Of a stretch of 32,099 bases of DNA, positions 11,830 to 25,659 are shown in pieces (the first letter of the stretch is position 1; each line of letters begins with the position of its first letter). The DNA is taken from positions 1-32,099 of the forward strand of contig JBLMWN010000106.1 in the NCBI GenBank assembly GCA_050257255.1, in the 5' to 3' direction. The DNA is from Betaproteobacteria bacterium. GTDB lineage: Bacteria; Nitrospirota; UBA9217. The translations under genes were made by a program, and so were the position numbers. The notes under the pieces are model-generated. The model saw only the letters and a program-made list of their open reading frames with translations, was not told the origin of the DNA and made no database searches.

Positions 11830-11962
11830 CGGTTTGCACTTCCGGTTTTTGGGTGACTCCGAAACAGGCATCAGATTCTCGGTGAATTGAAACAATCCTC
11901 CCTTTCTGACAGGACCGCGAAAGCGTTTGATACCGCTGGATGTTCTTATTCTGTTTTCGTGG

Positions 11963-11991
11963 TTGACATCATCTATGCCTGCCGCTATAAT
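11963..11991 (+). promoter_or_regulatory. Consensus sigma70 promoter of tRNA-Gly
   Basis: TTGACA (11963-11968), 17 bp spacer, TATAAT (11986-11991), 11 nt before the tRNA. Confidence 0.88.
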
Positions 11992-12002
11992 GTTTTTCTA
12001 AA

Positions 12003-12078
12003 GCGGGCGTAGCTCAGCTGGTAGAGTACAAGCTTCCCAAGCTTGGGGTCGCGGGTTCGAAACCCGTCGCCCGCTCCA
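12003..12078 (+). tRNA. tRNA-Gly (anticodon CCC)
   Basis: Acceptor GCGGGCG/CGCCCGC, D arm AGCTCAGCTGGTAGAGT, anticodon arm CAAGC-TTCCCAA-GCTTG, T arm GCGGG-TTCGAAA-CCCGT, encoded CCA; 76 nt. Confidence 0.97.
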
Positions 12079-12091
12079 ATTTTCGGTTTTT

Positions 12092-12120
12092 AATCCGTGA
12101 GTTTATCTCACGGATTTTTT
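12092..12120 (+). terminator. Intrinsic terminator after tRNA-Gly
   Basis: AATCCGTGAG-TTTAT-CTCACGGATT perfect stem followed by a T run. Confidence 0.8.
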
Positions 12121-12610
12121 GTTTGTCCAAGAGTTGTCCGAGTCCATCCACCATCCAAGCCCTCTGCCGTATCTTTCTCTTTCTCCGTCCTGATGCCGTG
12201 TACGGCCCTCCCGCGTTCGAGGATTTCACCAACGACAACGTACGAGACCGAAAGATTAAGCAGGTCTCATGTTCTCGCAGTTGGCAACCTGGGAGCACGT
12301 GTCATCAGGCGTATACGTGATCTCGCCGCGTCGTTCTAGTACGAGCATATGGGGCAGGATATGCAGGATATCTGGTAAGAGCATTAAACATGTCATCAAT
12401 GTGAGTGATCGGTGCGGATTTTGCCCAGTCCAGGACGTCGAAGAAGGGATGAATAGCTTATCTACATTTCGTTTGACTTCGCGTAGGCGAGAGGATGCCC
12501 GGGCCGTTGGTCATGACAATTTAAAATTTCCCCCCTTACACAAACGCTGATGAACGTCATCCCTTATCCATGATAAATACAAAATGCTATGCTCTATATT
12601 AGAGCTGCCT

Positions 12611-13027
12611 ATGAAAAACTTTATTTACTTACTCGCTGCGCTTGCACTTTTCGCATGTGGACAAGACAATCAAGCGCCCCCCGTAGTAGACCTCTCAAAT
12701 ACTACTATAGTGTGGGAAGGTAATATTCAAGAAAATTCGGATTTCATGGTCACCTATAATGATGTAAAGCAATGCCTCGAATCTTTTGGCTTAGTGAATA
12801 ATGCCGTGCCGCCTTATGTGGTTCTCACTGAGAAATTTAAAACATTTATCTGCGACGGGCAGGTGGTCACCGGCTGTGCTTTATTCAACACAAATACCAT
12901 CTATGTGCCAGAACAAGCCACATGGGGCACACAATATATCTTTAAACATGAGCTGGTCCATATAATTTCTCATCTCGGTAATGATGCCCATAACACGAAA
13001 CCTTGTGTCATCTGCTCCGAAATGTAA
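12611..13027 (+). CDS. Hypothetical lipoprotein with HExxH (HELVH) zincin-like motif
   Basis: MKNFIYLLAALALFAC lipoprotein signal; FKHELVHIISH; visibly AT-richer than flanking genes. Confidence 0.65.
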   Translation: MKNFIYLLAALALFACGQDNQAPPVVDLSNTTIVWEGNIQENSDFMVTYNDVKQCLESFGLVNNAVPPYVVLTEKFKTFICDGQVVTGCALFNTNTIYVPEQATWGTQYIFKHELVHIISHLGNDAHNTKPCVICSEM

Positions 13028-13578
13028 GTATACTATACATTATGATTCCTGATTCATGTCTGGCCGTCCTGCTTTGCACTTAGCTGCAACAGGTTGCACC
13101 CCTGCTGTTGACATGGTCAACGGCAGGGGATCATTCGCTGAATTTCACATGAACCCTGCGGTGGCACGGCAGAATGTTCCTGTGTATAGCATTCGGGTGG
13201 ACCGTCTGCATCGGCAACAGTTACTGATCGGGCGGCTACGAATAAAATCGTTCAAAAACTGTAATGCTAAAAGCCTACAGTAAACATCGTCCTATTCGTA
13301 GATTTACCATATGGTATAATTCATTTATACGACTATCCATCTCTCACAATTTAACAACTAAAATATATATTCAGTTCCCGTTTGAAGAATACAATAACGC
13401 TTGAATGCTCAAGTAAGTCATCGGACGGGGCTGAAGCAATATAACATCACCAAGTTTATATCAAATATAACTAAATATCTTTATAGCTAAAGACAGAACG
13501 TTGCAAGAGGATTATGATTTTGTTTTCTCTGGAACGCGCGGTTGGGATTGTGACCGGAAGCGCACAAAGGAGGATTGA

Positions 13579-16302
13579 ATGGCTATTTCACGGAGAGGTT
13601 TTATCAAGATTTGCGCCCTGGGCGCCGGGGCCGCGGCAGGATCGCACTTTTTCCGCCTGGCCGATGCGATCCCGGGCATGGAGCAGCAGGAGGGCACCGG
13701 CGTGCTTGAATACGTGCGGTCCACCTGTTCGCCGAACTGCACCGGAGCCTGCGGATTTAATGCCATGGTCTACAAGGGCAGGATCCAATCCCTGGTCCAG
13801 GCAGCCGACTACCCCGAGGCGGAGTACAATCCGAGAGGATGTCTCCGGGGGCAGTCCTCGCTCAACCTCATCTACGGCCCGGATCGGCTCAAACAGCCGC
13901 TCGTCAGGGTCGGCAAGCGGGGCGAGGGAAAGTTCAAGGCCGTGAGCTGGGACGAGGCCCTTGACTACGTCTCGGACAAGCTCGCCGGGATCACGCAGAA
14001 ATACGGGCCCGAGTCCGTGGTGGGTAATATCCAGGTGCCGGGCACGGGCTACGTGCACAAAGGTGCGCTTATGCGCCTCGCTTCCATGAATGAATGGAGC
14101 ATCATCCACGCCTATACGATGAACGGCGACCTGCCGGCGTTCTGGCCCATGACCTTCGGCGTCCAGACCGAGGAGCTGGAATCTCTGGAGTGGACCAATT
14201 CGAAATACACGATGATCCTGGGCTCCAATGTGATGGTCACGCGCGTGCCCGACGCAAAGTTCCTGAACATCAGCAGGGAGAACGGCAATAAGGTTGTCGT
14301 GGTCGATCCGAATTACAGCCCTACGGCAGCCAAGGCCGATGAATGGATCCAGATTAATCCCTCCTCCGACGCCGCTTTTGCCATGGGCATCGTGAGCGTT
14401 ATCGTGAACGAAAAGCTCTATGACGAAGAATTCATCAAGACCAACACCGACATGCCCCTCCTGGTCCGGCTCGACAACAACAAAAAGCTCCTTGCAGCCG
14501 ACGTGGCTTCCCTGTCCGGCCGGGCGAAGGAGCGTAAGAAAAAGATCCCCGAATACCGCGACCTGTACGTTGTGTATAACATGAATACCAAAGGCTATGC
14601 CATCCCCGATCCCGAAAACCTGAAGCGGGACTTCGATCCCGCGCTCGAAGGGGAGTTCGAGGTTTATCTCACCGGCGGGAAGAGGGTGAAGGTGAAGCCG
14701 GTGTTCCAACTCCTTACGGAATACGTGAACGCCCATTATACGCCGGAAATGGCGGCCCGCATCATCGCTCCTGAAGAGTCCCGGATCACGGAATATACAG
14801 ATATGATCAAAAGGATCGCCCGTGAAATGGCCACGCACAAGCCGCTCCATATCGTCTACGGCGCGAGCAACTACCAGTGGTACCACGGTGACCTGAAGGG
14901 CAGGGCGCTTTCACTCATCGTCACCCTGACCGGAAACCTCGGCAAGTCCGGGGCGGGCATCTCGACTTACGCGGGACAGTATCGCGTCCGCTGGCCCCTG
15001 GGCGCCTGGTGGGCCTTCAAGGGCAAGATGAACAAGTGGACGAACTACCTGCTCTGGATGAACGACGAGTACCGCAACGGCGAGGAGTTCAAGAAATACG
15101 GCAAGGATATCCCGTATCCCAAGAACGGGATCAAGGCCTTCATCTACGGCTGGGGGAACCCCTTCGACCAGCACAACATGGCGAACCGGATGCGCGAGAA
15201 GGCCACAAGCGGAGAGCTCGAACTGATCGTGACAACCGATTTCCAGATGAGCACATCCTGCCTCTGGTCCGATGTGGTGCTTCCCGGCGTTGCGTGGTAC
15301 GAGAAGTACGAGCTCACGGCAACGATCCCCCATCCCTACATCCAACTGCAGCAGCCCGCCATCGAGCCCCTGTTCCAGTGCATGCCCGAACTCTGGATCT
15401 ACAAAGAGATCGCAAAGAGGCTCGCGCACAAGACCGGCAACCAGGAGAACATCAAGAGCATCGCCGAATTCTATCCCGATCCGCAGGTGTACTTGGAGGA
15501 AGAAGCTGCGAGAAAGAACGGGACCTGGACGCTCAAGCTCGCACGTCAGCTCACGAACAAGGCCTCGCTCGATGCCGCGGCGCTCATGCTCAAGACCGGC
15601 GGACCTACGGTGAAGGACATCACCATTGACATGCTTAAGCAAGGCCCGGTGAGAATGAACCTGGCCACGCCGAACAAGAGGCAGATCATGTTCTACGAGC
15701 AGGTACACGATCAGAAGGCGTTCCCGCCCCCGTCCTTCCCTGCGCCTCTCCCGAAGACGGCGCGGTTCGTCAAGAGCGGCAGGATCGAGTTCTACAAGGA
15801 CGAAGACATCTTCATCGAAACAGGCGAGACGCTGCCCGGGCACAAAGACCCCTTCAAGGACACGGAGAACCGGAAACGGGGGGAGAAGGACAAATACAAG
15901 CTCGCCCTGATCACGCGGAACTCTCTTTACCGGGTCCACTCGACGCACAGCAACAATATCAGCCTGCTCGAACTCCAGGACTTCAAGCCGAAGATCTGGC
16001 TCAATCCGAAAGCAGCCGCGGAGCGGGGCATCAAGGAAGGCGACCACGTGGAAGCCTTCAACGACCGGGGCAAGGTCCTGGGGTACGCGGTCCTCGACCC
16101 CGGCCTGCACCATGCCGTGGCCGTGTTCGAAGAGGGTTGGTGGAGCAAGTATACCTTAGGCACATCCTATAACACACTCACCTATCCGTGGATCAAGGCA
16201 GCGCATGTTATCTACTTCACGCCCGGCATTTGGGAGCCCACGACGGCCTGGAACGAGTGCGCCTGCGAAGTGAAAAAGGCCGGGGAGGTAAGCCATGCGT
16301 AA
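13579..16302 (+). CDS. Tat-exported Mo/W-bis-PGD oxidoreductase catalytic subunit (DMSO reductase family, type II/Nar-like)
   Basis: Tat motif SRRGFIK; FS0 motif CSPNCTGAC-x29-C; NGDLP..P.TFGVQT matching the NarG Asp-ligand loop; VDPNYSPTAAKADEW; SDVVLP; C-terminal RVHSTH domain; RBS AAGGAGG. Confidence 0.9.
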   Translation: MAISRRGFIKICALGAGAAAGSHFFRLADAIPGMEQQEGTGVLEYVRSTCSPNCTGACGFNAMVYKGRIQSLVQAADYPEAEYNPRGCLRGQSSLNLIYGPDRLKQPLVRVGKRGEGKFKAVSWDEALDYVSDKLAGITQKYGPESVVGNIQVPGTGYVHKGALMRLASMNEWSIIHAYTMNGDLPAFWPMTFGVQTEELESLEWTNSKYTMILGSNVMVTRVPDAKFLNISRENGNKVVVVDPNYSPTAAKADEWIQINPSSDAAFAMGIVSVIVNEKLYDEEFIKTNTDMPLLVRLDNNKKLLAADVASLSGRAKERKKKIPEYRDLYVVYNMNTKGYAIPDPENLKRDFDPALEGEFEVYLTGGKRVKVKPVFQLLTEYVNAHYTPEMAARIIAPEESRITEYTDMIKRIAREMATHKPLHIVYGASNYQWYHGDLKGRALSLIVTLTGNLGKSGAGISTYAGQYRVRWPLGAWWAFKGKMNKWTNYLLWMNDEYRNGEEFKKYGKDIPYPKNGIKAFIYGWGNPFDQHNMANRMREKATSGELELIVTTDFQMSTSCLWSDVVLPGVAWYEKYELTATIPHPYIQLQQPAIEPLFQCMPELWIYKEIAKRLAHKTGNQENIKSIAEFYPDPQVYLEEEAARKNGTWTLKLARQLTNKASLDAAALMLKTGGPTVKDITIDMLKQGPVRMNLATPNKRQIMFYEQVHDQKAFPPPSFPAPLPKTARFVKSGRIEFYKDEDIFIETGETLPGHKDPFKDTENRKRGEKDKYKLALITRNSLYRVHSTHSNNISLLELQDFKPKIWLNPKAAAERGIKEGDHVEAFNDRGKVLGYAVLDPGLHHAVAVFEEGWWSKYTLGTSYNTLTYPWIKAAHVIYFTPGIWEPTTAWNECACEVKKAGEVSHA

Positions 16303-17044
16303 ACTGGGAATGGTCATTGATCTCAATCGCTGCATCGGGTGCAGGAGCTGTGCCGTAGTCTGCAAGATTCACAACTCGCTTCCGCCGGGGACCTGGTGGC
16401 AGCGCGTCGAGACCGTGGGATCGCAGGAACACTTGATCCCTGTCGGCGAATACCCCGATCTGTCCGAAGTTTTTCTGCCGGTGCCGTGCCAGCACTGCGA
16501 CAACGCGCCCTGCGTCAAGGTCTGCCCGGTGAAAGCCACCTGGCAGCGGGAAGATGGGCTCGTGCTTGTGGACTACGAGCGCTGCATCGGGTGCCGGTAC
16601 TGCATGACAGCGTGCCCTTACGGGGTCCGGCAGTTCAACTGGCAGGATTCCGAAAAAAGCTTCAAGGAAGGTTTCAAGAAGGCGGGCTTCGAGGAGAACT
16701 GGTTCGCGGACAAAGACTATCGTTTCGGCTACCCCCTCGACCATCGGACAAAGGACGGAAGGCTCGTGTTCACGCAGAAGAGACCCAGGGGCGTGGTGGA
16801 GAAATGCACGTTCTGCGTCCAGTATGTGGACCAGGGTCTCCTTCCCGCATGCGTTCGCGGGTGCCCGGGCAACGCCAGAACCTTCGGCGACCTGAACGAT
16901 CCGGACAGCGAAATTTCCAGGATCATCCGCGGTCGGAACGTGTTCAAACTGATGTCTGACCTTGGCACGGAGCCCAAGGTTTTCTATATTCCGCCGGCGC
17001 GGAAGGAAGGGAAAGGAGGCATCCACTATGGAAAAAAGGTATAA
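16295..17044 (+). CDS. 4x[4Fe-4S] electron-transfer subunit (DmsB/NrfC/PsrB type)
   Basis: CIGCRSCAVVC, CQHCDNAPCVKVCP, CIGCRYCMTACP, KCTFC...PACVRGCP. Confidence 0.93.
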   Translation: MRKLGMVIDLNRCIGCRSCAVVCKIHNSLPPGTWWQRVETVGSQEHLIPVGEYPDLSEVFLPVPCQHCDNAPCVKVCPVKATWQREDGLVLVDYERCIGCRYCMTACPYGVRQFNWQDSEKSFKEGFKKAGFEENWFADKDYRFGYPLDHRTKDGRLVFTQKRPRGVVEKCTFCVQYVDQGLLPACVRGCPGNARTFGDLNDPDSEISRIIRGRNVFKLMSDLGTEPKVFYIPPARKEGKGGIHYGKKV

Positions 17045-18299
17045 CTCTGTCGTGGCGATCCTTGCCGTACTGGTGGGCGTCGGCGTGGTCGCCTGGATAT
17101 ATCAGCTGAGCACGGGCCTGATCGCGACCGACATGAGAAACGGTTTTTCCTGGGGCTTGTACATCGCGACCTGGGCGTTCTTCGTTGGAACCGCTGCAGG
17201 AGGTCTCGTAGTCTCCTCCGCCATCTATCTTTTCGGGGCCAAGCAATTGAAGCCCATCGCCAAGGTGGCATCGCTCACGGCCTTTCTCTTCGCCATGGGT
17301 GCGATGATCATCCTGCTTCCGGACATCGGCAGGCCTGACCGGCTCTATTATTTTCTGCTCCATCCGAATTTTAAATCCATGCTGCCCTGGGACGTGATCG
17401 TCCTGTCGGGCTACGCCGCGGTATCGGCAATCTACACCTATACGCTGCTCTATCCCGATATCGTGGCCCGGGGAGTCGCAGTGCCGTTCATCGGTGTTGT
17501 CGGCAAAAGGAACGTAAGCGAAGCTGAGCTTGCCAGGCTCCGGGAGATATCGGATAAACGCGCAAAGAACCTGGCGCCTGTGGCCCTGCCGCTTGCCATC
17601 CTCATCCATACGGTCACCGCCTGGGTGCTCGCGACCCAGATGGCGCGGCCTTGGTGGTACGGCGGCGTGCTGGCCCCCACGTTCATTGCTGCCGCCCTGG
17701 CCAGCGGCCCGGCCATCGTGATCCTTGCCTCCCTCGTCGTATACGGGTACAAGGAAAAACTGGAGGGCACCTATGCGCTGCTCGCCAAGGTATCGGCTGT
17801 CGCATCGGTCATTATGCTTTTTATCTACTACAATGACTTCGTCGTGCGGCTTTGGTGGAACGCGGGACGTGAGTTCGAGGCATTAAAGCTGGTGTTTACC
17901 CGGTATCCCCTGTTCCACGCCACAGAGGTGGTCTTTATCTTGCTGGCAACGATTATCTTCATCAAGTACCCGAAGGACCCGAAAAAGCTGGTCCTGGGGA
18001 GCATCTCCGTCGTTGTGGGCGTTTTCGCGCATCGTATCCTGCTCCTGCCGCCTGCCTACAATAATATGCCGCTCAGGCTGCCGGTAATGCTGCACAACGA
18101 GACGATGGAGTGGTCCTATCCCATCTCTGTGGGACAGGTGCGAGGCTCTCTCCTCCACCCGCAAAAAATATTCATGTCGTTCTATGACTATTTCCCTTCT
18201 TCCGTGGAAATCATAATCACTATTGGCGTTATGGCTCTTCTCGGCCTCGCGTTCCTGGGACTGATGAAGATGCTGCCGATGAGGGAGTCTGAACAATGA
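17028..18299 (+). CDS. NrfD/PsrC-family membrane anchor (quinol-interacting subunit)
   Basis: WGLYIA..FFVG.AAG, DIGRPDR, PNFKSMLPWD, IHTVTAW, RPWW; many hydrophobic helices; RBS AAAGGAGG before ATG 17028. Confidence 0.9.
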   Translation: MEKRYNSVVAILAVLVGVGVVAWIYQLSTGLIATDMRNGFSWGLYIATWAFFVGTAAGGLVVSSAIYLFGAKQLKPIAKVASLTAFLFAMGAMIILLPDIGRPDRLYYFLLHPNFKSMLPWDVIVLSGYAAVSAIYTYTLLYPDIVARGVAVPFIGVVGKRNVSEAELARLREISDKRAKNLAPVALPLAILIHTVTAWVLATQMARPWWYGGVLAPTFIAAALASGPAIVILASLVVYGYKEKLEGTYALLAKVSAVASVIMLFIYYNDFVVRLWWNAGREFEALKLVFTRYPLFHATEVVFILLATIIFIKYPKDPKKLVLGSISVVVGVFAHRILLLPPAYNNMPLRLPVMLHNETMEWSYPISVGQVRGSLLHPQKIFMSFYDYFPSSVEIIITIGVMALLGLAFLGLMKMLPMRESEQ

Positions 18300-18799
18300 A
18301 CCCCTATCGGTATTTTTCGCTGATTTTTTCCTATCCCACGGAGCAAAACAGAAGAGACCTCGGGAAACTATCACTGGTCGAGGGAGTGGCGGGACTTCGT
18401 TCCGCGGAAATCCTCGGCGCCGTCAGCCTGGAGGAGCTTCAGGCGGAGTACACGCGGCTTTTCATTTCCGCCTACCCAAAGCTTATCTGTCCGCCCTATG
18501 AGTCATACTATAGAGAGGGGATTGTCTATGGGAATTCCTCGATCGAAGTAGGAGAGTGGTACCAGAAGCGCGGTCTCGACTTCATCTGCGAGGGAGAACC
18601 CGCGGACATCGTCAGCGCAGAGCTGGAATTTCTGGCGATCACGAACGACGGCCCGTTTCTCAGGAGAATGAAGAAATGGATCTTCGAGTTTACCGGCAAC
18701 GTGAAGCAGAACTCAACGATCTATGGCCCCTGCGCCGATGAATTGGAAAAGTTTTTAATGCAACAGGAGGGAACGGAGACGGCCGTTCCGGTCGTATGA
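18296..18799 (+). CDS. TorD/DmsD-family molybdoenzyme maturation chaperone
   Basis: EYTRLF, PPYESYY, EPAD...ELEFL motifs (His of the usual DH replaced by Ile); ATGA overlap with the anchor gene. Confidence 0.82.
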   Translation: MNPYRYFSLIFSYPTEQNRRDLGKLSLVEGVAGLRSAEILGAVSLEELQAEYTRLFISAYPKLICPPYESYYREGIVYGNSSIEVGEWYQKRGLDFICEGEPADIVSAELEFLAITNDGPFLRRMKKWIFEFTGNVKQNSTIYGPCADELEKFLMQQEGTETAVPVV

Positions 18800-19041
18800 A
18801 ACCAGCGACCGCATGAATGATGGGAGTGAAGCAGGGAAAAAGAAGCCACACCCCGAGACCCCGCATTCAAATCGGTCTCAGCGGGAAGGAAAATCACGTT
18901 TCAAGAATACCCGGAATATTTTCCGGTTTGATCCTCGCTGGACGGCGAATATCAGCAGCCTTTAATGTCGCATTGAAGCCCGCCGCAGAGCCACGGAGAA
19001 ATAGATTGATTGCAGAGAACTTGATCAATGGGAGGAAGATC

Positions 19042-19695
19042 ATGTCCATCGCTCAGAGCGCTGCATCTCGAGTCATATCTGAATTCGAAACATTGCTCCA
19101 AGAATCGGCGAAGACCCATGGCCACCTTTGCCCCGGCCAGGTGCTGGGAGTCAGGATGTCGCTTCTCGGCCTCGGGGAGATCGGCGTCTTGGACCCAAAG
19201 GGAAAAGACCGGAAAAGCATCATGGTCTTCGTCGAAATGGACAGGTGCGCCACGGATGCCGTACAGTCCGTCACGGGATGCAGCCTGGGACGCAGAACCA
19301 TGAAGTTCCTGGACTACGGCAAGATGGCGACGACGTTCCTGAACCTGAAGACGGGCAAGGCTATGCGGATCATTGCCCGTGAGGACTCTCGCGAGAAGAC
19401 ACGGCAGTATTTCCCTGACATTGAGAACAAATACGCGGCACAGCTTGAGGCATACAAGGTCATGTCCGATGCAGAGCTTTTCGACGTGATGGAGGTGACC
19501 GTTAAAGTCGCCCCCGAGGACTTGCCCGGGAGGCCGATGCGAAGGGTGCGGTGCGATTCGTGCGGCGAGCACGTTCAGGATATGAGAGAGGTCTATCGGA
19601 ACGGAAAGGTCCTGTGCCTTCCCTGCGCCGAGGGCGGCTACTATTACGAATCGAACAAACCCTTTTTGGCGGTGCGTTATGCGAAAAACCCATAA
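19042..19695 (+). CDS. FmdE/FwdE-family protein with C-terminal Zn finger
   Basis: HGHLCPGQVLG, VEMDRCATDAVQSVTGCSLG, CDSCGE...CLPC; RBS GGGAGG before ATG 19042. Confidence 0.88.
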   Translation: MSIAQSAASRVISEFETLLQESAKTHGHLCPGQVLGVRMSLLGLGEIGVLDPKGKDRKSIMVFVEMDRCATDAVQSVTGCSLGRRTMKFLDYGKMATTFLNLKTGKAMRIIAREDSREKTRQYFPDIENKYAAQLEAYKVMSDAELFDVMEVTVKVAPEDLPGRPMRRVRCDSCGEHVQDMREVYRNGKVLCLPCAEGGYYYESNKPFLAVRYAKNP

Positions 19696-19697
19696 CG
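19675..19697. promoter_or_regulatory. Candidate ModE operator overlapping the modE start codon
   Basis: Perfect inverted repeat CGTTATG-N9-CATAACG resembling ModE-box half-sites. Confidence 0.6.
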
Positions 19698-20042
19698 GCC
19701 TGGATATAAGATCAAAGATATGGATCGAGCTCAACGGTGAACCGGTCTTCAGCCGGGGCAGGCGCTTTCTCTTGGAGGCCATAGACACCCACGGTTCTAT
19801 CAACAAGGCGGCGCACGATGTCGACATCTCCTTCCGCAAGGCGTGGGGCCATATCAAAGCCATGGAAGAGCGGCTCGGCGAAGCTTGTGGACCGGCAAAC
19901 CGGCGGAAAGAATGGCGGAGGCACGAAGCTAACGGCTGATGCGCGGAAATTTTTGAAAAAATACGAAGCCCTGGAAAAAGGCATTCAAGAGTTCGTCGAT
20001 AAGCGATTCAGGACCATCTTCAAGGGAGGCTCCCATGTGTGA
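19679..20042 (+). pseudogene. modE: ModE-type winged-helix regulator (HTH only), frameshifted near 19880
   Basis: KIWIE..GEPVFSRGRRFLLEAIDTHGSINKAA..ISFRKAWGHIKAMEERLG continues in the next frame as KLVDRQTGGKNGGGTKLT; junction GGC-G-AAG-CTT. A sequencing error is possible. Confidence 0.8.
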
Positions 20043-21237
20043 CAGCGTTCATGATCAGCAAAGACATGGTACGAAATCCATACCCGTTCAGCAAGCCATC
20101 GGTACGGTCCTCGCCCACGACATAACCGAGATACGGCCTGGTGAATTCAAAGGCTGCGCTTTTAAGAAGGGGCACATAATCAGAGAAGAGGACGTTTGCC
20201 ATTTGCAGAGAATCGGCAAGGATCATCTCTTTGTGCTCCAGGTCGCCGAAGATGAAATGCACGAAAACGATGCAGCCTATGAGCTCGCGAACGCCTTGAT
20301 GGGAGAAGGGGTCGCTATCAAGGGAGAGCCAAGGGAAGGCAAGATCAGCATCATCGCGGACCGCGACGGCCTTCTTAAGATCAACAAGGATGCGCTCCTG
20401 GCGTTCAATATGCTGGGAGACGTCATGTGCGCCACACTTCATAACAATACGGTTGTCAAAACAGGACAGACCGTAGCAGGTACGAGAGCGATCCCGCTGG
20501 TCGTGAAGAAGAGCGTGGTTGAAGAAGCTGCCAGAATTGCGAGGGAAGTTCAAAGTTCCACGTTCAAGGTTCAAGGTTCGGAATCCGCACTCCGCAATCC
20601 TAAACCCGAAATGAATAAACCCAATGGAATCATAGAAGTCAAGGAACTCAGAAAGCCGAGAGCCGGCGTGGTCATCACGGGCAACGAAGTCTATCACGGC
20701 AGGATTAAGGACGCTTTCGCGCCGATCATTGCCAAAAAGATCGAAGCATGCGGCGGCGAGATCATGGGCATTTATTATGCTCCCGATGACGAGCACTATA
20801 TCGAAGACAGGCTGCGTGAACTTTTGAAAGCCGGCGCGGATCTTCTGGTCACCACTGGTGGCATGTCAGTCGACCCCGACGACGTGACCCGCTTTGCAAT
20901 TCGGAACCTCGGCGTGACGGACTTCATCTACGGCTCTGCCGTGCTGCCGGGAGCCATGTTTCTGGTGGCGTACCTTGAGAGAGTGCGGAGTCCGGAGTGC
21001 GAGGTTCGGAGTGAAGAAAACTCACAACATAAGACGCGAAACGCGGATCTGATCCCCATTCTGGGGATTCCCGCCTGCGGCATGTATGCGAAGACCACGG
21101 TTTTTGACCTGATGCTCCCTAGGGTCCTCGCTGGGGAGAGGCTCGGGAGGACGGATCTTGCCGAAATGGGACACGGCGGCTTGTGCATGCACTGCGAGGT
21201 CTGCCGTTACCCGGTTTGTCCCTTCGGGAAAGGGTAA
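20035..21237 (+). CDS. MoeA-like molybdopterin-binding protein with C-terminal Cys cluster
   Basis: AIGTVLAHDITEIRPGEFKG, VITGNEV, TGGMSVDPDDVT, YGSAVLPGAM, PACGMY, terminal GGLCMHCEVCRYPVCPFGKG. Confidence 0.85.
   Translation: MCDSVHDQQRHGTKSIPVQQAIGTVLAHDITEIRPGEFKGCAFKKGHIIREEDVCHLQRIGKDHLFVLQVAEDEMHENDAAYELANALMGEGVAIKGEPREGKISIIADRDGLLKINKDALLAFNMLGDVMCATLHNNTVVKTGQTVAGTRAIPLVVKKSVVEEAARIAREVQSSTFKVQGSESALRNPKPEMNKPNGIIEVKELRKPRAGVVITGNEVYHGRIKDAFAPIIAKKIEACGGEIMGIYYAPDDEHYIEDRLRELLKAGADLLVTTGGMSVDPDDVTRFAIRNLGVTDFIYGSAVLPGAMFLVAYLERVRSPECEVRSEENSQHKTRNADLIPILGIPACGMYAKTTVFDLMLPRVLAGERLGRTDLAEMGHGGLCMHCEVCRYPVCPFGKG
20548..20610. repeat. In-frame heptamer tandem repeat inside the MoeA-like gene
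   Basis: GTTCAAA GTTCCAC GTTCAAG GTTCAAG GTTCGGA ATCCGCA CTCCGCA ATCCTAA ACCCGAA (9 units, 63 bp). Confidence 0.8.
20981..21015. repeat. Second heptamer tandem repeat inside the MoeA-like gene
   Basis: GAGTGCG GAGTCCG GAGTGCG AGGTTCG GAGTGAA. Confidence 0.75.
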
Positions 21238-21372: not shown

Positions 21373-21402
21373 TTGACAGTACCTATCTCTTTGATTTATT
21401 AT
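21373..21402 (+). promoter_or_regulatory. sigma70-like promoter pointing into the att-like repeat
   Basis: TTGACA (21373-21378), 18 bp spacer, TATTAT (21397-21402). Confidence 0.55.
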
Positions 21403-21423
21403 CTTTCCGGGTCCGGGGCAGCA

Positions 21424-21451
21424 GCGGGTTTAAGACCCGTCGCCCGCTCCA
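21424..21451 (+). repeat. Duplicated tRNA-Gly 3' end (att-like direct repeat)
   Basis: GCGGGTTTAAGACCCGTCGCCCGCTCCA vs tRNA GCGGGTTCGAAACCCGTCGCCCGCTCCA; three mismatches, all in the T loop. Confidence 0.88.
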
Positions 21452-21490
21452 TTTAAATTAAACAGCATTCCATCCGTTACTATACTGTGA

Positions 21491-21521
21491 CCCCGCCTGA
21501 TGATACAGGTGGGGGTTTTTT
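21491..21521 (+). terminator. Intrinsic terminator downstream of the tRNA-end repeat
   Basis: CCCCGCCTG-ATGATA-CAGGTGGGG stem followed by GTTTTTT. Confidence 0.75.
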
Positions 21522-21535
21522 GTCTAGGAAACGCC

Positions 21536-22189
21536 ATGGCATCACTAATATTAAACATTCTGTTTGCAGTTGCCCTGTTTTTTTGCGGTCCTGCATGGGC
21601 GGAAGACCGGGTCGTGATCGCGGATTTTTCGTCCGGCGTCGATTCTGCAGGCATACCGGTCGGGTGGCAGGTTAAAGAAAAATCCGGCAAGGCGGATTTC
21701 TCGGTCGTCAAGGACGGCGACATCTCAGCGGTTCGGTTCCGGAGCGCGAACACGTCTTTCTCCCTCCAAAGAGAAGTGAATGTGGACCTCAAGAAGTTCC
21801 CGATTCTCACCTGGAAATGGAAAGTGACCAAACTGCCGGCTGGAGGGGATTTCAGAAAATCGAAGACCGATGATCAGGCTGCGCAACTCTTCGTTGCATT
21901 CACCAAGACCAAGTCGATCGTCTACATCTGGGACACGAGCGCACCGCAGGGTCTTTCGGAGGACACGACGCCGGTTCCCTTCATGCATGTCAAGGTGGTA
22001 GTCGTGCGATCCGGTCCTGCAGGGACGGGGATGTGGATCACCGAGACCCGGAACGTATATGAAGATTACAAGAAGCTCTTTGGCGAGGAACCACCACCGG
22101 TAAACGGCATGCGGCTCCAGATTAACTCTCAGCACACCGGGACATCGGCCGAGAGTTACTTTGCGGATGTAGCGTTTAAAAAACAGTGA
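21536..22189 (+). CDS. DUF3047-family exported protein
   Basis: Signal peptide ..PAWA; PILTWKWKV, DDQAAQLFVAF, IVYIWD, WITETRNVYEDYKKLFGEEPP, SQHTG..AESYF. Confidence 0.8.
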   Translation: MASLILNILFAVALFFCGPAWAEDRVVIADFSSGVDSAGIPVGWQVKEKSGKADFSVVKDGDISAVRFRSANTSFSLQREVNVDLKKFPILTWKWKVTKLPAGGDFRKSKTDDQAAQLFVAFTKTKSIVYIWDTSAPQGLSEDTTPVPFMHVKVVVVRSGPAGTGMWITETRNVYEDYKKLFGEEPPPVNGMRLQINSQHTGTSAESYFADVAFKKQ

Positions 22190-22200
22190 AGCGGTTTTTG

Positions 22201-22268
22201 CCACGAACTTGCACGGGAATTAGGCATCAGAACGATTCAATCCGTGTTCATCAGTGTTCATCCATGGT
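22201..22268. repeat. Intergenic decamer repeat element
   Basis: ATCCGTGTTC ATCAGTGTTC ATCCATGG with loosely complementary left arm CCACGAACTT GCACGGGAAT. Confidence 0.6.
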
Positions 22269-25488: not shown

Positions 25489-25547
25489 AAGTGCTCGAAA
25501 AGCTATTGACTTTGACTTGCCGGTCCTGTATTGTACAACCATCATAA

Positions 25548-25632
25548 AGCTGGGGGAGCCGAATTGGCTGAGAGTCCTGCGGGAGGACGACCCTTAGAAC
25601 CTGATCCGGGTTGTGCCGGCGTAGGGAAGGCG
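25548..25632 (+). ncRNA. TPP riboswitch aptamer
   Basis: GGGGAGCC..GGCTGAGA...ACCCTTAGAACCTGATCCGG....GCCGGCGTAGGGAA; upstream of the thi operon; candidate promoter TTGACT(25506)-17-TATTGT(25529). Confidence 0.95.
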
Positions 25633-25659
25633 AATAATAAGCAACATAAAACCCTTCGT

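Follow-up and report, generated by a model that had tools for sequence, protein, structure and literature searches.

The stretch of DNA analysed here, hereafter the window, comprises 32,099 nt of contig JBLMWN010000106.1 from a Nitrospirota genome assembly. Its plus strand carries a tightly packed operon (positions 13579-18799) in which genes for a catalytic subunit (alpha), an iron-sulfur (Fe-S) subunit (beta), an NrfD-family membrane anchor and a chaperone follow one another. This operon very probably encodes a membrane-anchored, periplasm-facing respiratory oxyanion reductase, orthologous in a bacterium to the AF0173-0176 complex of Archaeoglobus fulgidus and gained through an insertion at a tRNA-Gly gene. 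The complex is a new bacterial member of a known clade that is uncharacterised in vitro, and an earlier note made from the letters of this DNA, which had proposed a periplasmic quinol-linked oxyanion reductase, is supported by the sequence comparisons presented below.

The alpha gene (13579..16302, plus strand, 907 amino acids) has an AGGAGG motif 6 nt ahead of its ATG, and neighbouring genes of the operon overlap by 8 nt (alpha/beta), 17 nt (beta/NrfD) and 4 nt (NrfD/chaperone). The alpha open reading frame (ORF) is a real gene and not a chance pattern; 1135 homologues were scored at E<=0.001, and Pfam searches matched Molybdopterin (8.5e-45), Molydop_binding (3.2e-20) and Molybdop_Fe4S4 (1.8e-08). 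The three features on which the earlier note had relied, a Tat signal, CSPNCTGAC-x29-C and NGDLPAFWPMTFGVQT, are all present in this 907-aa product. The Tat motif MAISRRGFIK is followed by a hydrophobic stretch and ADA, the cysteines of CSPNCTGAC are C50, C54 and C58, with C88 following 29 residues on, and NGDLPAFWPMTFGVQT begins at residue 182, which makes its Asp D184. By its sequence, alpha is a type II dimethyl sulfoxide (DMSO) reductase-family subunit with a Tat signal, a four-Cys FS0 cluster site and an Asp predicted to bind Mo or W. Among NCBIfam models, its best match was TIGR03479 (DMSO_red_II_alp; 510.4 bits, below the cut-off of 984.75), while the NarG, EbdA and DmsA models gave 270-285 bits, including 275.9 bits for the NarG model TIGR01580 against a cut-off of 1084. 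When solved structures were ranked with phmmer, the perchlorate reductase PcrA (4ydd) came first (3.6e-111, residues 51-835), followed by EbdA (4.6e-73), NarG (about 1e-68), PsrA (7.9e-56) and NxrA (3.4e-51).

The Nar-like Asp active site claimed for alpha was upheld by HMMER alignments to 4ydd and 3ir5, in which D184 aligns with the Asp of PcrA YGDHP (D170) and of NarG YCDLP (D222). These two residues are described as Mo ligands in PMC8301774, cited here, like the other papers below, from excerpts of its text. The canonical type II FS0 motif, H-x3-C-x3-C…C, is not matched, the first ligand of alpha being a Cys; the NarG, pNarG and ClrA references have His there, and C50 aligns with the His49 position of NarG, where the best-scoring NarG entry (3ir5) prints Cys. 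Conservation was counted over 121 aligned clade proteins, namely the window alpha and 120 listed homologues (P0006-P0125), using at each position only the rows with a residue. D184 is kept in 119/119 rows, as are Y179, N182, L185 and P186, and the same invariance holds for C50 (112/112), C58 (112/112) and C88 (118/118). At the second FS0 ligand position, Cys occurs in 98 and Asp in 14 of the 112 rows, and the twin Arg of the Tat signal is kept in 107 of the 108 rows having an N-terminus. The proteins with C-x3-D-x3-C, the pattern that the earlier note gave for Nitrospira NxrA, are P0051, P0053-P0057, P0059-P0061, P0077, P0078, P0100, P0115 and P0122.

The substrate gate sets the clade apart. 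PcrA has an aromatic gate formed by Phe164, Tyr165 and Trp461 (PMC8301774), and the window alpha has A178, Y179 and Y468 at these positions: one of the three residues is identical and two of the three positions are aromatic, so that the full aromatic gate is missing; N182 is a further pocket residue of alpha. Across the clade, the Phe164 position is occupied by A in 58, G in 50 and P in 11 proteins. The Trp461 position, at which every Nar reference has Glu, is taken by Y in 97 and by F in 24 of the 121 proteins. Because the residues at the gate positions differ from both, the clade pocket is neither Nar-like nor Pcr-like, and this clade-wide residue signature appears to be modestly new here.

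The beta gene (16295..17044, plus strand) encodes a 249-aa Fe-S protein without signal peptide that matches Pfam 4Fe-4S dicluster families. Its 16 Cys form four complete groups of the C-x2-C-x2-C-x3-C type, from which four [4Fe-4S] clusters are predicted. Group III has the sequence CIGCRYC and follows the DmsB pattern; its second Cys is absent from the PcrB-like, ClrB and NarH references, a gap linked to a [3Fe-4S] FS4 cluster in passages of PMC8301774 and PMC8840923. Between groups III and IV, the window beta has an insert of about 45 aa in common with the Archaeoglobus and Moorella betas. Beta scored 203.7 bits with the DsrO model (cut-off 200), 197.3 with ArrB, 189.8 with TtrB and 134.7 with the type II beta model TIGR03478. 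With a DsrO score just over the cut-off, automatic annotation could name this protein DsrO; it should not be so called, as it belongs to a molybdoenzyme operon and is devoid of the DsrO signal region. The matches to the DsrO, TtrB and NrfC profiles begin at positions 38-43, and the Tat signal of these profiles is absent from beta. The third gene encodes the NrfD-family integral membrane anchor (17028..18299, plus strand, 423 aa; PF03916, 4.3e-63); its ORF opens at TTG 16962, ATG 17028 being the likelier start. The hydropathy profile of the anchor shows about 10 hydrophobic segments, searches detected no haem-binding family in it, and its best NCBIfam match was DsrP (146 bits, below cut-off). 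Next comes the gene for a NarJ/DmsD/TorD-type chaperone for Tat proofreading and cofactor insertion (18296..18799, plus strand, 167 aa; PF02613, Nitrate_red_del, 2e-16), which has weak NCBIfam matches to DmsD and type II chaperone models.

Homologue searches with alpha returned Nitrospirota/Thermodesulfovibrionales proteins (74-93% identity) and then the Archaeoglobus protein P0040 (896 aa; GenBank AAB91056.1), 69% identical over 99% of the length. Other homologues occur in Carboxydothermus hydrogenoformans (59%), Moorella thermoacetica (56%) and Desulfosporosinus/Desulfitobacterium (52-54%). P0040 is taken to be AF_0176, because published work singles out AF0176, among three A. fulgidus clusters, as the one resembling Nar and Pcr, and in view of the accession and source names of P0040. 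In a maximum likelihood tree of alpha (41 rows, quick search, LG+G4, rooted on a DmsA), all 28 AF0176-type rows formed one clade (SH-aLRT 100), sister to a group with a cld-linked PcrA-like enzyme, ClrA, Haloferax pNarG and two NarG; counting against this placement, the tree holds few named references, EbdA, SerA, DdhA, NxrA and Azospira PcrA having been left out and compared through phmmer scores only. The window alpha falls in a Nitrospirota/Thermodesulfobacteriaceae subclade whose sister is an Archaeoglobus/Ferroglobus/Geoglobus subclade (100).

Gene order was tallied over 86 distinct loci, derived from 146 loci in two of three collection scans. In each of the 75 distinct loci that offer 2300 nt or more after alpha, tblastn found homologues of both beta and NrfD there, and the third gene matched PF03916 in all eight representative loci scanned with Pfam (Archaeoglobus, Thermodesulfobacteriaceae, Moorella, Desulfosporosinus, a deltaproteobacterium, Methanoperedenaceae, Lachnospiraceae and Thermincola). 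The fourth gene matched PF02613 in 4/4 loci scanned, including the Archaeoglobus locus L089, where NrfD is found too; more broadly, the chaperone was detected after NrfD in 20 of the 70 loci whose downstream DNA extends over 3000 nt or more, and was mostly undetected in Bacillota. Since the architecture is the same in 75/75 loci, it is the defining layout of a described clade and not a new hybrid. The "hybrid" complex of the earlier note was correct in its anatomy, with its 249-aa Fe-S subunit of four Cys groups and its NrfD anchor.

Together, the 69% identity, the SH-aLRT 100 clade and the gene order turn a likeness to AF0173-0176 that the earlier note had offered as unverified into orthology, and the window operon is best regarded as the bacterial orthologue of that complex. 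The phylogenetic check proposed at the same time had a mixed outcome: alpha nests in a described clade with the same subunit set, but the substrate of this clade is itself putative. This A. fulgidus enzyme was reportedly the object of a modelling study, to judge by the title of a 2006 paper by Dridge et al. The order alpha-beta-NrfD-chaperone is shared with AF0173-AF0176 and its relatives Ferp_0124, GAH_01285-01288, CHY_2082 and Moth_1908, as are, with AF0173-AF0176, the Tat signal, the all-Cys FS0, the Asp ligand and the 16-Cys beta with its insert. Both hosts are Dsr organisms in which no chlorite dismutase (Cld) was found. They differ in that the window host is a Nitrospirota bacterium, apparently of sediment or soil, whereas A. 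fulgidus is a hyperthermophilic archaeon, and in that the window operon is the cargo of a tRNA-Gly insertion with FmdE-like and MoeA-like genes downstream. Excerpts of PMC6299022 and PMC8322695 describe AF0174-0176 as a DMSO II, Nar-associated periplasmic enzyme, with relatives in Ferp_0124, Moth_1908 and homologues of Desulfitobacterium, Desulfosporosinus and Carboxydothermus. Here, the clade was seen in Archaeoglobi, Nitrospirota, Thermodesulfobacteriota, many Bacillota, Desulfobulbaceae, Methanoperedenaceae, rumen Lachnospiraceae and Coriobacteriales. Carriers among rumen and gut metagenome-assembled genomes (MAGs) belong to Lachnospiraceae, Oscillospiraceae, Coriobacteriales and Eggerthellaceae (loci L050, L052-L061, L063, L066, L068, L071, L072, L074 and L086), and in many of these loci genes for a LuxR-type response regulator, a HisKA_3 kinase and a polyferredoxin, together with Tat genes, border the operon.

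Compared with Azospira PcrAB (4ydd), the window enzyme shares the Asp ligand, the nature of a periplasmic, Tat-exported type II enzyme and Y179, which corresponds to gate Tyr165. It differs by the first FS0 ligand (Cys, not His), by Ala and Tyr in place of gate Phe164 and Trp461, by the four 4-Cys groups of beta, where the PcrB-like reference is one Cys short, and by an NrfD anchor with neither a PcrC-type cytochrome nor an adjacent cld. No CxxCH motif occurs in any frame of 11830-13600. In our collection, one locus (L164) lies on a conjugative plasmid of Alisedimentitalea scapharcae (NZ_CP123588.1) and combines cld with a PcrA-like alpha, an Fe-S beta, a TorD-like chaperone and a cytochrome c; its alpha is 33% identical to the window alpha and has Asn at the first FS0 ligand and Tyr at the position of the PcrA gate Trp.

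With NarGHI of Escherichia coli and pNarGH of Haloferax mediterranei, the window enzyme shares the Asp-ligand motif DLP…(W/F)G.QT and the fold family, and pNarG is Tat-exported like the window alpha; Nar enzymes, too, are reported to reduce chlorate (PMC6299022). Nar enzymes differ by H-x3-C-x3-C, by Glu at the Y468 position and by Tyr at the N182 position, while NarH is larger than the window beta and has no second Cys in group III. The anchors are a dihaem NarI in E. coli and a Rieske/cytochrome b module in Haloferax, against NrfD in the window. An assignment to NarGHI was rejected on the Tat signal, the full beta group III, the NrfD anchor and the TIGR01580 score under its cut-off. The PsrABC, PhsABC, TtrABC and DsrOP systems have in common with the window a small ferredoxin subunit (four [4Fe-4S] predicted), a haem-less NrfD-family anchor and a periplasmic catalytic subunit; in contrast to Psr and Ttr, the window alpha lies on the Asp-ligand type II branch and groups with Nar, Pcr and Clr.

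The genomic setting of the operon points to inserted DNA. A tRNA-Gly(CCC) gene forms the left end (12003..12078, plus strand; ARAGORN, and Rfam RF00005 with 66.1 bits), and the first copy of a flanking repeat lies in its 3' part (12051-12081). A degenerate att-like copy of this 3' end at 21424..21454 (plus strand; 27/31 nt, of which 21435-21451 form an exact 17-nt core) closes a 9.4-kb module holding the whole operon; two copies of the 17-mer core are present in the window, whereas 100 shuffles gave an expected number of 0.00. The left flank, composed of AddB, a small ORF, a redoxin and tRNA-Gly, is kept in all 10 same-genus genomes examined. Four of these (G001, G003, G007 and G010) display an empty site, with CobU about 70-100 nt after the tRNA and, on contigs long enough to show it, CobT after CobU; the corresponding genes of the window begin at 22254. 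The six others have something else after the tRNA, including a phage-type integrase (G006), a multihaem cytochrome (G004) and a LysR regulator (G008). Because of these empty sites and this variable content, the region of roughly 10 kb between about 12.09 and 22.25 kb is considered to be DNA inserted at a hot spot. It includes a DUF3047 gene between the repeat and cobU (21500..22189, plus strand; PF11249, 1.1e-37), whose homologue in nine same-genus genomes is not next to tRNA-Gly, redoxin, CobU or MoeA; this gene probably represents a second inserted module, since it is absent from the empty sites too.

An alpha orthologue was found in 1 of 14 same-genus genomes, in 0/10 genomes of the same family outside the genus and in 0/16 genomes of the same phylum. 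In the one congener concerned (G004), the operon has other surroundings and is situated about 27 kb away from tRNA-Gly, and nucleotide similarity to the window is confined to 13506-18821 (89%) and 19031-19649 (71%). These data are consistent with the operon having reached its host by horizontal transfer, as cargo of the tRNA-Gly(CCC) insertion. Two observations weigh against this scenario, namely the four mismatches in the repeat and the failure to find an integrase in the insertion (no Pfam match at E<=0.01 in the five ORFs of 12080-13560). The tRNA-Gly island with its empty sites is modestly new here. As a separate observation, the tRNA-Gly gene and its partial copy (11963-12116 and 21373-21514) are each framed by a near-consensus sigma-70-like promoter (12/12 and 11/12) and a terminator-like hairpin.

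The host genome, which is 86.6% complete, encodes DsrA over its cut-off and TatC. At this completeness, no Cld (PF06778) was found and no NarG or NapA scored over its cut-off, the best match to the NarG model being the window alpha. If the host respires nitrate, the window alpha is the sole candidate seen. The window itself has no chlorite dismutase either, as had been stated from its ORFs; tblastn with two Cld proteins found none. Other molybdopterin oxidoreductase genes with in-frame TGA occur on host contigs C73, C126 and C221 and look like selenocysteine formate-dehydrogenase-type genes. In a soil metatranscriptome study (X2, X7), near-identical contigs (0-1 differences in matches of 188-304 nt) were found on alpha, NrfD and the chaperone, and none on 12154-13569 or 19234-20295; the flanks may differ in that population. 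These matches are Logan contigs from RNA libraries, showing neither transcription nor strand, and they give only a weak hint of expression because they are contigs and not reads.

What is established for the Nar, Dms and Psr systems suggests how such a complex would operate. The chaperone would bind the Tat leader of alpha and hold apo-alpha until the bis-PGD (pyranopterin guanine dinucleotide) cofactor and FS0 are inserted, after which alpha and beta would be exported together through Tat. NrfD would oxidise menaquinol, and electrons would pass through the four [4Fe-4S] clusters and FS0 to Mo or W (Mo(VI/IV)), where the metal would take one oxygen atom off an oxyanion at the outer face of the membrane.

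As to the substrate, we infer a promiscuous nitrate/(per)chlorate reductase. Reduction of nitrate to nitrite has about an even chance of being the main natural reaction. Reduction of (per)chlorate to chlorite is unlikely to be the main one; sulfide made by the cell itself would then remove the chlorite, as has been suggested for A. fulgidus. Other oxyanions have a small chance of being the substrate. Gene neighbourhoods incline to nitrate and nitrite, with Cld in none of the 86 loci: 16 of these loci have a nitrogen-type neighbour (Hcp in 9, HPP in 6, a cytochrome resembling hydroxylamine oxidoreductase, hereafter HAO-like, in 4; three loci carry two), and these include Nitrospirota, Thermodesulfobacteriaceae, Bacillota and a Desulfotignum MAG. 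The HPP family is presented as a putative nitrite transporter in PMC7438415. The HAO-like cytochrome has eight CxxCH motifs, with 4qo5 as best PDB match (1e-50) and hydroxylamine oxidoreductases at about 2e-23. In L018 (5170-6561), the closest relative with 93% aa identity, its gene directly precedes alpha. It was also seen upstream in L009 (5576-6952), L011 and L036, including one Desulfosporosinus MAG. LuxR-type response regulators occur in a further 16 loci and HisKA_3 kinases in nine; such pairs have the architecture of NarXL, which is not specific. D. metallidurans and Desulfosporosinus sp. I2 both possess the AF0176-type enzyme, and Table 1 of PMC10949509 lists them as nitrate reducers marked "-" for E. 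coli-type NarG and NapA.

A broader proposal can be made only tentatively, with doubt outweighing confidence. The AF0176-type complex may constitute a third, unrecognised class of respiratory nitrate reductase, periplasmic, Asp-ligated, NrfD-anchored and haem-less, that would be used by anaerobes without Nar or Nap, in partnership with Hcp, HPP or HAO-like proteins, to ammonify nitrate, (per)chlorate reduction being a side reaction. It would move between archaea and bacteria, and the tRNA-Gly island would provide a sulfate/sulfite-reducing Nitrospirota bacterium with a high-potential acceptor.

Several lines of evidence weigh against nitrate, or against the oxyanion reductase as a whole. The sole published experimental link for the clade is to (per)chlorate and not to nitrate, and no purified enzyme of the AF0176-type clade was found in the literature searched; catalysis, substrate and metal (Mo or W) are thus all inferred. 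No nitrogen-cycle neighbour occurs in 70 of the 86 loci, and the neighbour evidence is circumstantial. The window has no HAO-like cytochrome gene, and the single PF13447 protein of the host genome (C292) is only 25% identical to that of the relatives, for which reason it was rejected as a displaced orthologue. D. hippei, D. fructosivorans and D. lacus (L088) carry the AF0176-type enzyme and are listed as not reducing nitrate in PMC10949509, and A. neptunius has the cluster and, according to passages of PMC8322695, does not grow on nitrate, chlorate or perchlorate. Lastly, Y or F where PcrA has its gate Trp and Nar has Glu leans away from a Nar-like pocket.

Some published cases were considered and set aside. 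Nitrate ammonification in Thermosulfurimonas and Dissulfuribacter uses Nap, as described in parts of PMC5276818, and was not taken as evidence. In A. acetoxydans, two NrfD-containing molybdopterin oxidoreductase clusters are induced about 13-fold on nitrate (PMC10949509, in part); they could not be tied to the AF0176-type clade, Acididesulfobacillus and D. acidiphilus being absent among the 80 loci kept. The passages found in the Methanoperedenaceae paper PMC7327174 do not discuss this clade.

The foremost alternative to nitrate is a dedicated (per)chlorate reductase, whose chlorite would be made in the periplasm and destroyed abiotically by Dsr-derived sulfide, the oxidised sulfur being re-reduced. 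In the excerpts of PMC8322695, PMC6299022, PMC3949148 and PMC4150442, AF0173-0176 is among three clusters with proteins raised during (per)chlorate use by A. fulgidus, and the proposed pathway needs no chlorite dismutase because sulfide scavenges chlorite. Placed in a host with DsrA and no Cld found, in a clade with Cld in 0/86 distinct loci, the enzyme has PcrA as its closest solved structure (3.6e-111), an aromatic Y/F at the gate-Trp position as in the cld-linked PcrA-like enzyme of the Alisedimentitalea plasmid, and Moorella homologues bearing the source label "Perchlorate reductase subunit alpha". However, Y179 is the only one of the three PcrA gate residues retained, Phe164 being replaced by A, G or P, nitrite- and NO-handling neighbours occur in 16/86 loci, and A. 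neptunius, as noted, has the cluster without growing on (per)chlorate (PMC8322695). The clade also extends to rumen and gut Firmicutes, Coriobacteriales, Desulfobulbaceae and Methanoperedenaceae, for which perchlorate would be an unlikely selective agent. A dedicated (per)chlorate reductase is held to be an unlikely candidate.

It is improbable that the enzyme acts on another oxyanion or on a sulfur compound, such as selenate, tellurate, arsenate, tetrathionate, thiosulfate or polysulfide. The host cycles sulfur (DsrA), beta scores best against DsrO, ArrB and TtrB and the anchor against DsrP, and alpha reaches 284.6 bits with the DMSO/selenate model TIGR02166. Yet alpha has the type II Asp ligand (119/119), whereas the catalytic subunits of Psr, Phs, Ttr and Arr use a Cys ligand; it groups in the tree with Nar, Pcr and Clr, at a distance from DmsA, and scores 193 bits with PsrA (2vpw) against 376 with PcrA, and no recurrent neighbour in the 86 loci is specific for sulfur or arsenic. 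Operation in the oxidative, quinone-reducing direction, like the nitrite-oxidising NXR or an EbdA-type hydroxylase of an organic substrate, is very improbable: type II enzymes do include oxidative members, with EbdA as second-best PDB family (4.6e-73) and NxrA at 3.4e-51, and 14 of 112 clade members have C-x3-D-x3-C, but the window alpha keeps all four Cys, the carriers would be strict anaerobes with low-potential menaquinone chains, no EbdA-typical aromatic or steroid catabolic neighbours occur in the 86 loci, and the haem b gamma subunit of the Ebd/Ser/Clr/Ddh type is missing.

The remainder of the insertion contains further genes. Downstream of the chaperone lies a gene for a 217-aa FmdE-domain protein with a C-terminal C4 zinc ribbon (19042..19695, plus strand; PF02663, 6.5e-33; PF01258, zf-dskA_traR, 3.6e-07). 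Its ORF opens at 18817, with ATG 19042 as the likely start, and no NCBIfam family was matched. FmdE genes adjoin the operon in 6 of the 75 loci (Nitrospirota, Archaeoglobus, Methanoperedenaceae and Desulfotignum), and the protein may be a maturation factor. The stretch of about 210 nt between the chaperone and this gene (18822-19030) has no counterpart in the closest relative, L018, and lengthens the apparent N-terminus of the FmdE ORF by 75 residues. The FmdE gene is followed, after a gap, by a gene for a 400-aa MoeA-like protein with a MoCF_biosynth domain (20035..21237, plus strand; PF00994, 2.2e-19), which scored under every curated cut-off (TIGR00177, 57.9 bits against 85); homologues 66-68% identical come after the operon in loci L009 and L010. 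The left part of the insertion, which is low in GC (0.486 over 12001-14000), holds a 93-aa ORF without family (12269..12550) and a 147-aa ORF with a lipoprotein-like N-terminus (…LFACGQ; 12584..13027, plus strand), for which no Pfam match at E<=0.01 and no NCBIfam match were found. Rfam searches at gathering thresholds revealed no Moco riboswitch upstream of the operon; they yielded only the tRNA and a TPP riboswitch (70.4 bits) at 25542-25644, upstream of the thiG, thiE, thiC and thiD genes.

For annotation purposes, we suggest that the operon be named an AF0173-0176-type periplasmic Nar/Pcr-like oxyanion reductase, and that the names NarGHI, PcrAB and "anaerobic selenocysteine-containing dehydrogenase" be avoided. 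If these enzymes prove to be the nitrate reductases of organisms at present recorded as having none, surveys based on marker genes would underestimate the capacity for nitrate reduction in anoxic sediments, soils and guts. If they are (per)chlorate reductases, a sulfide-dependent reduction of perchlorate that needs no chlorite dismutase would be much more widespread than assumed. The tRNA-Gly insertion, together with the empty sites in congeners, offers a concrete, datable example of the spread of this trait.

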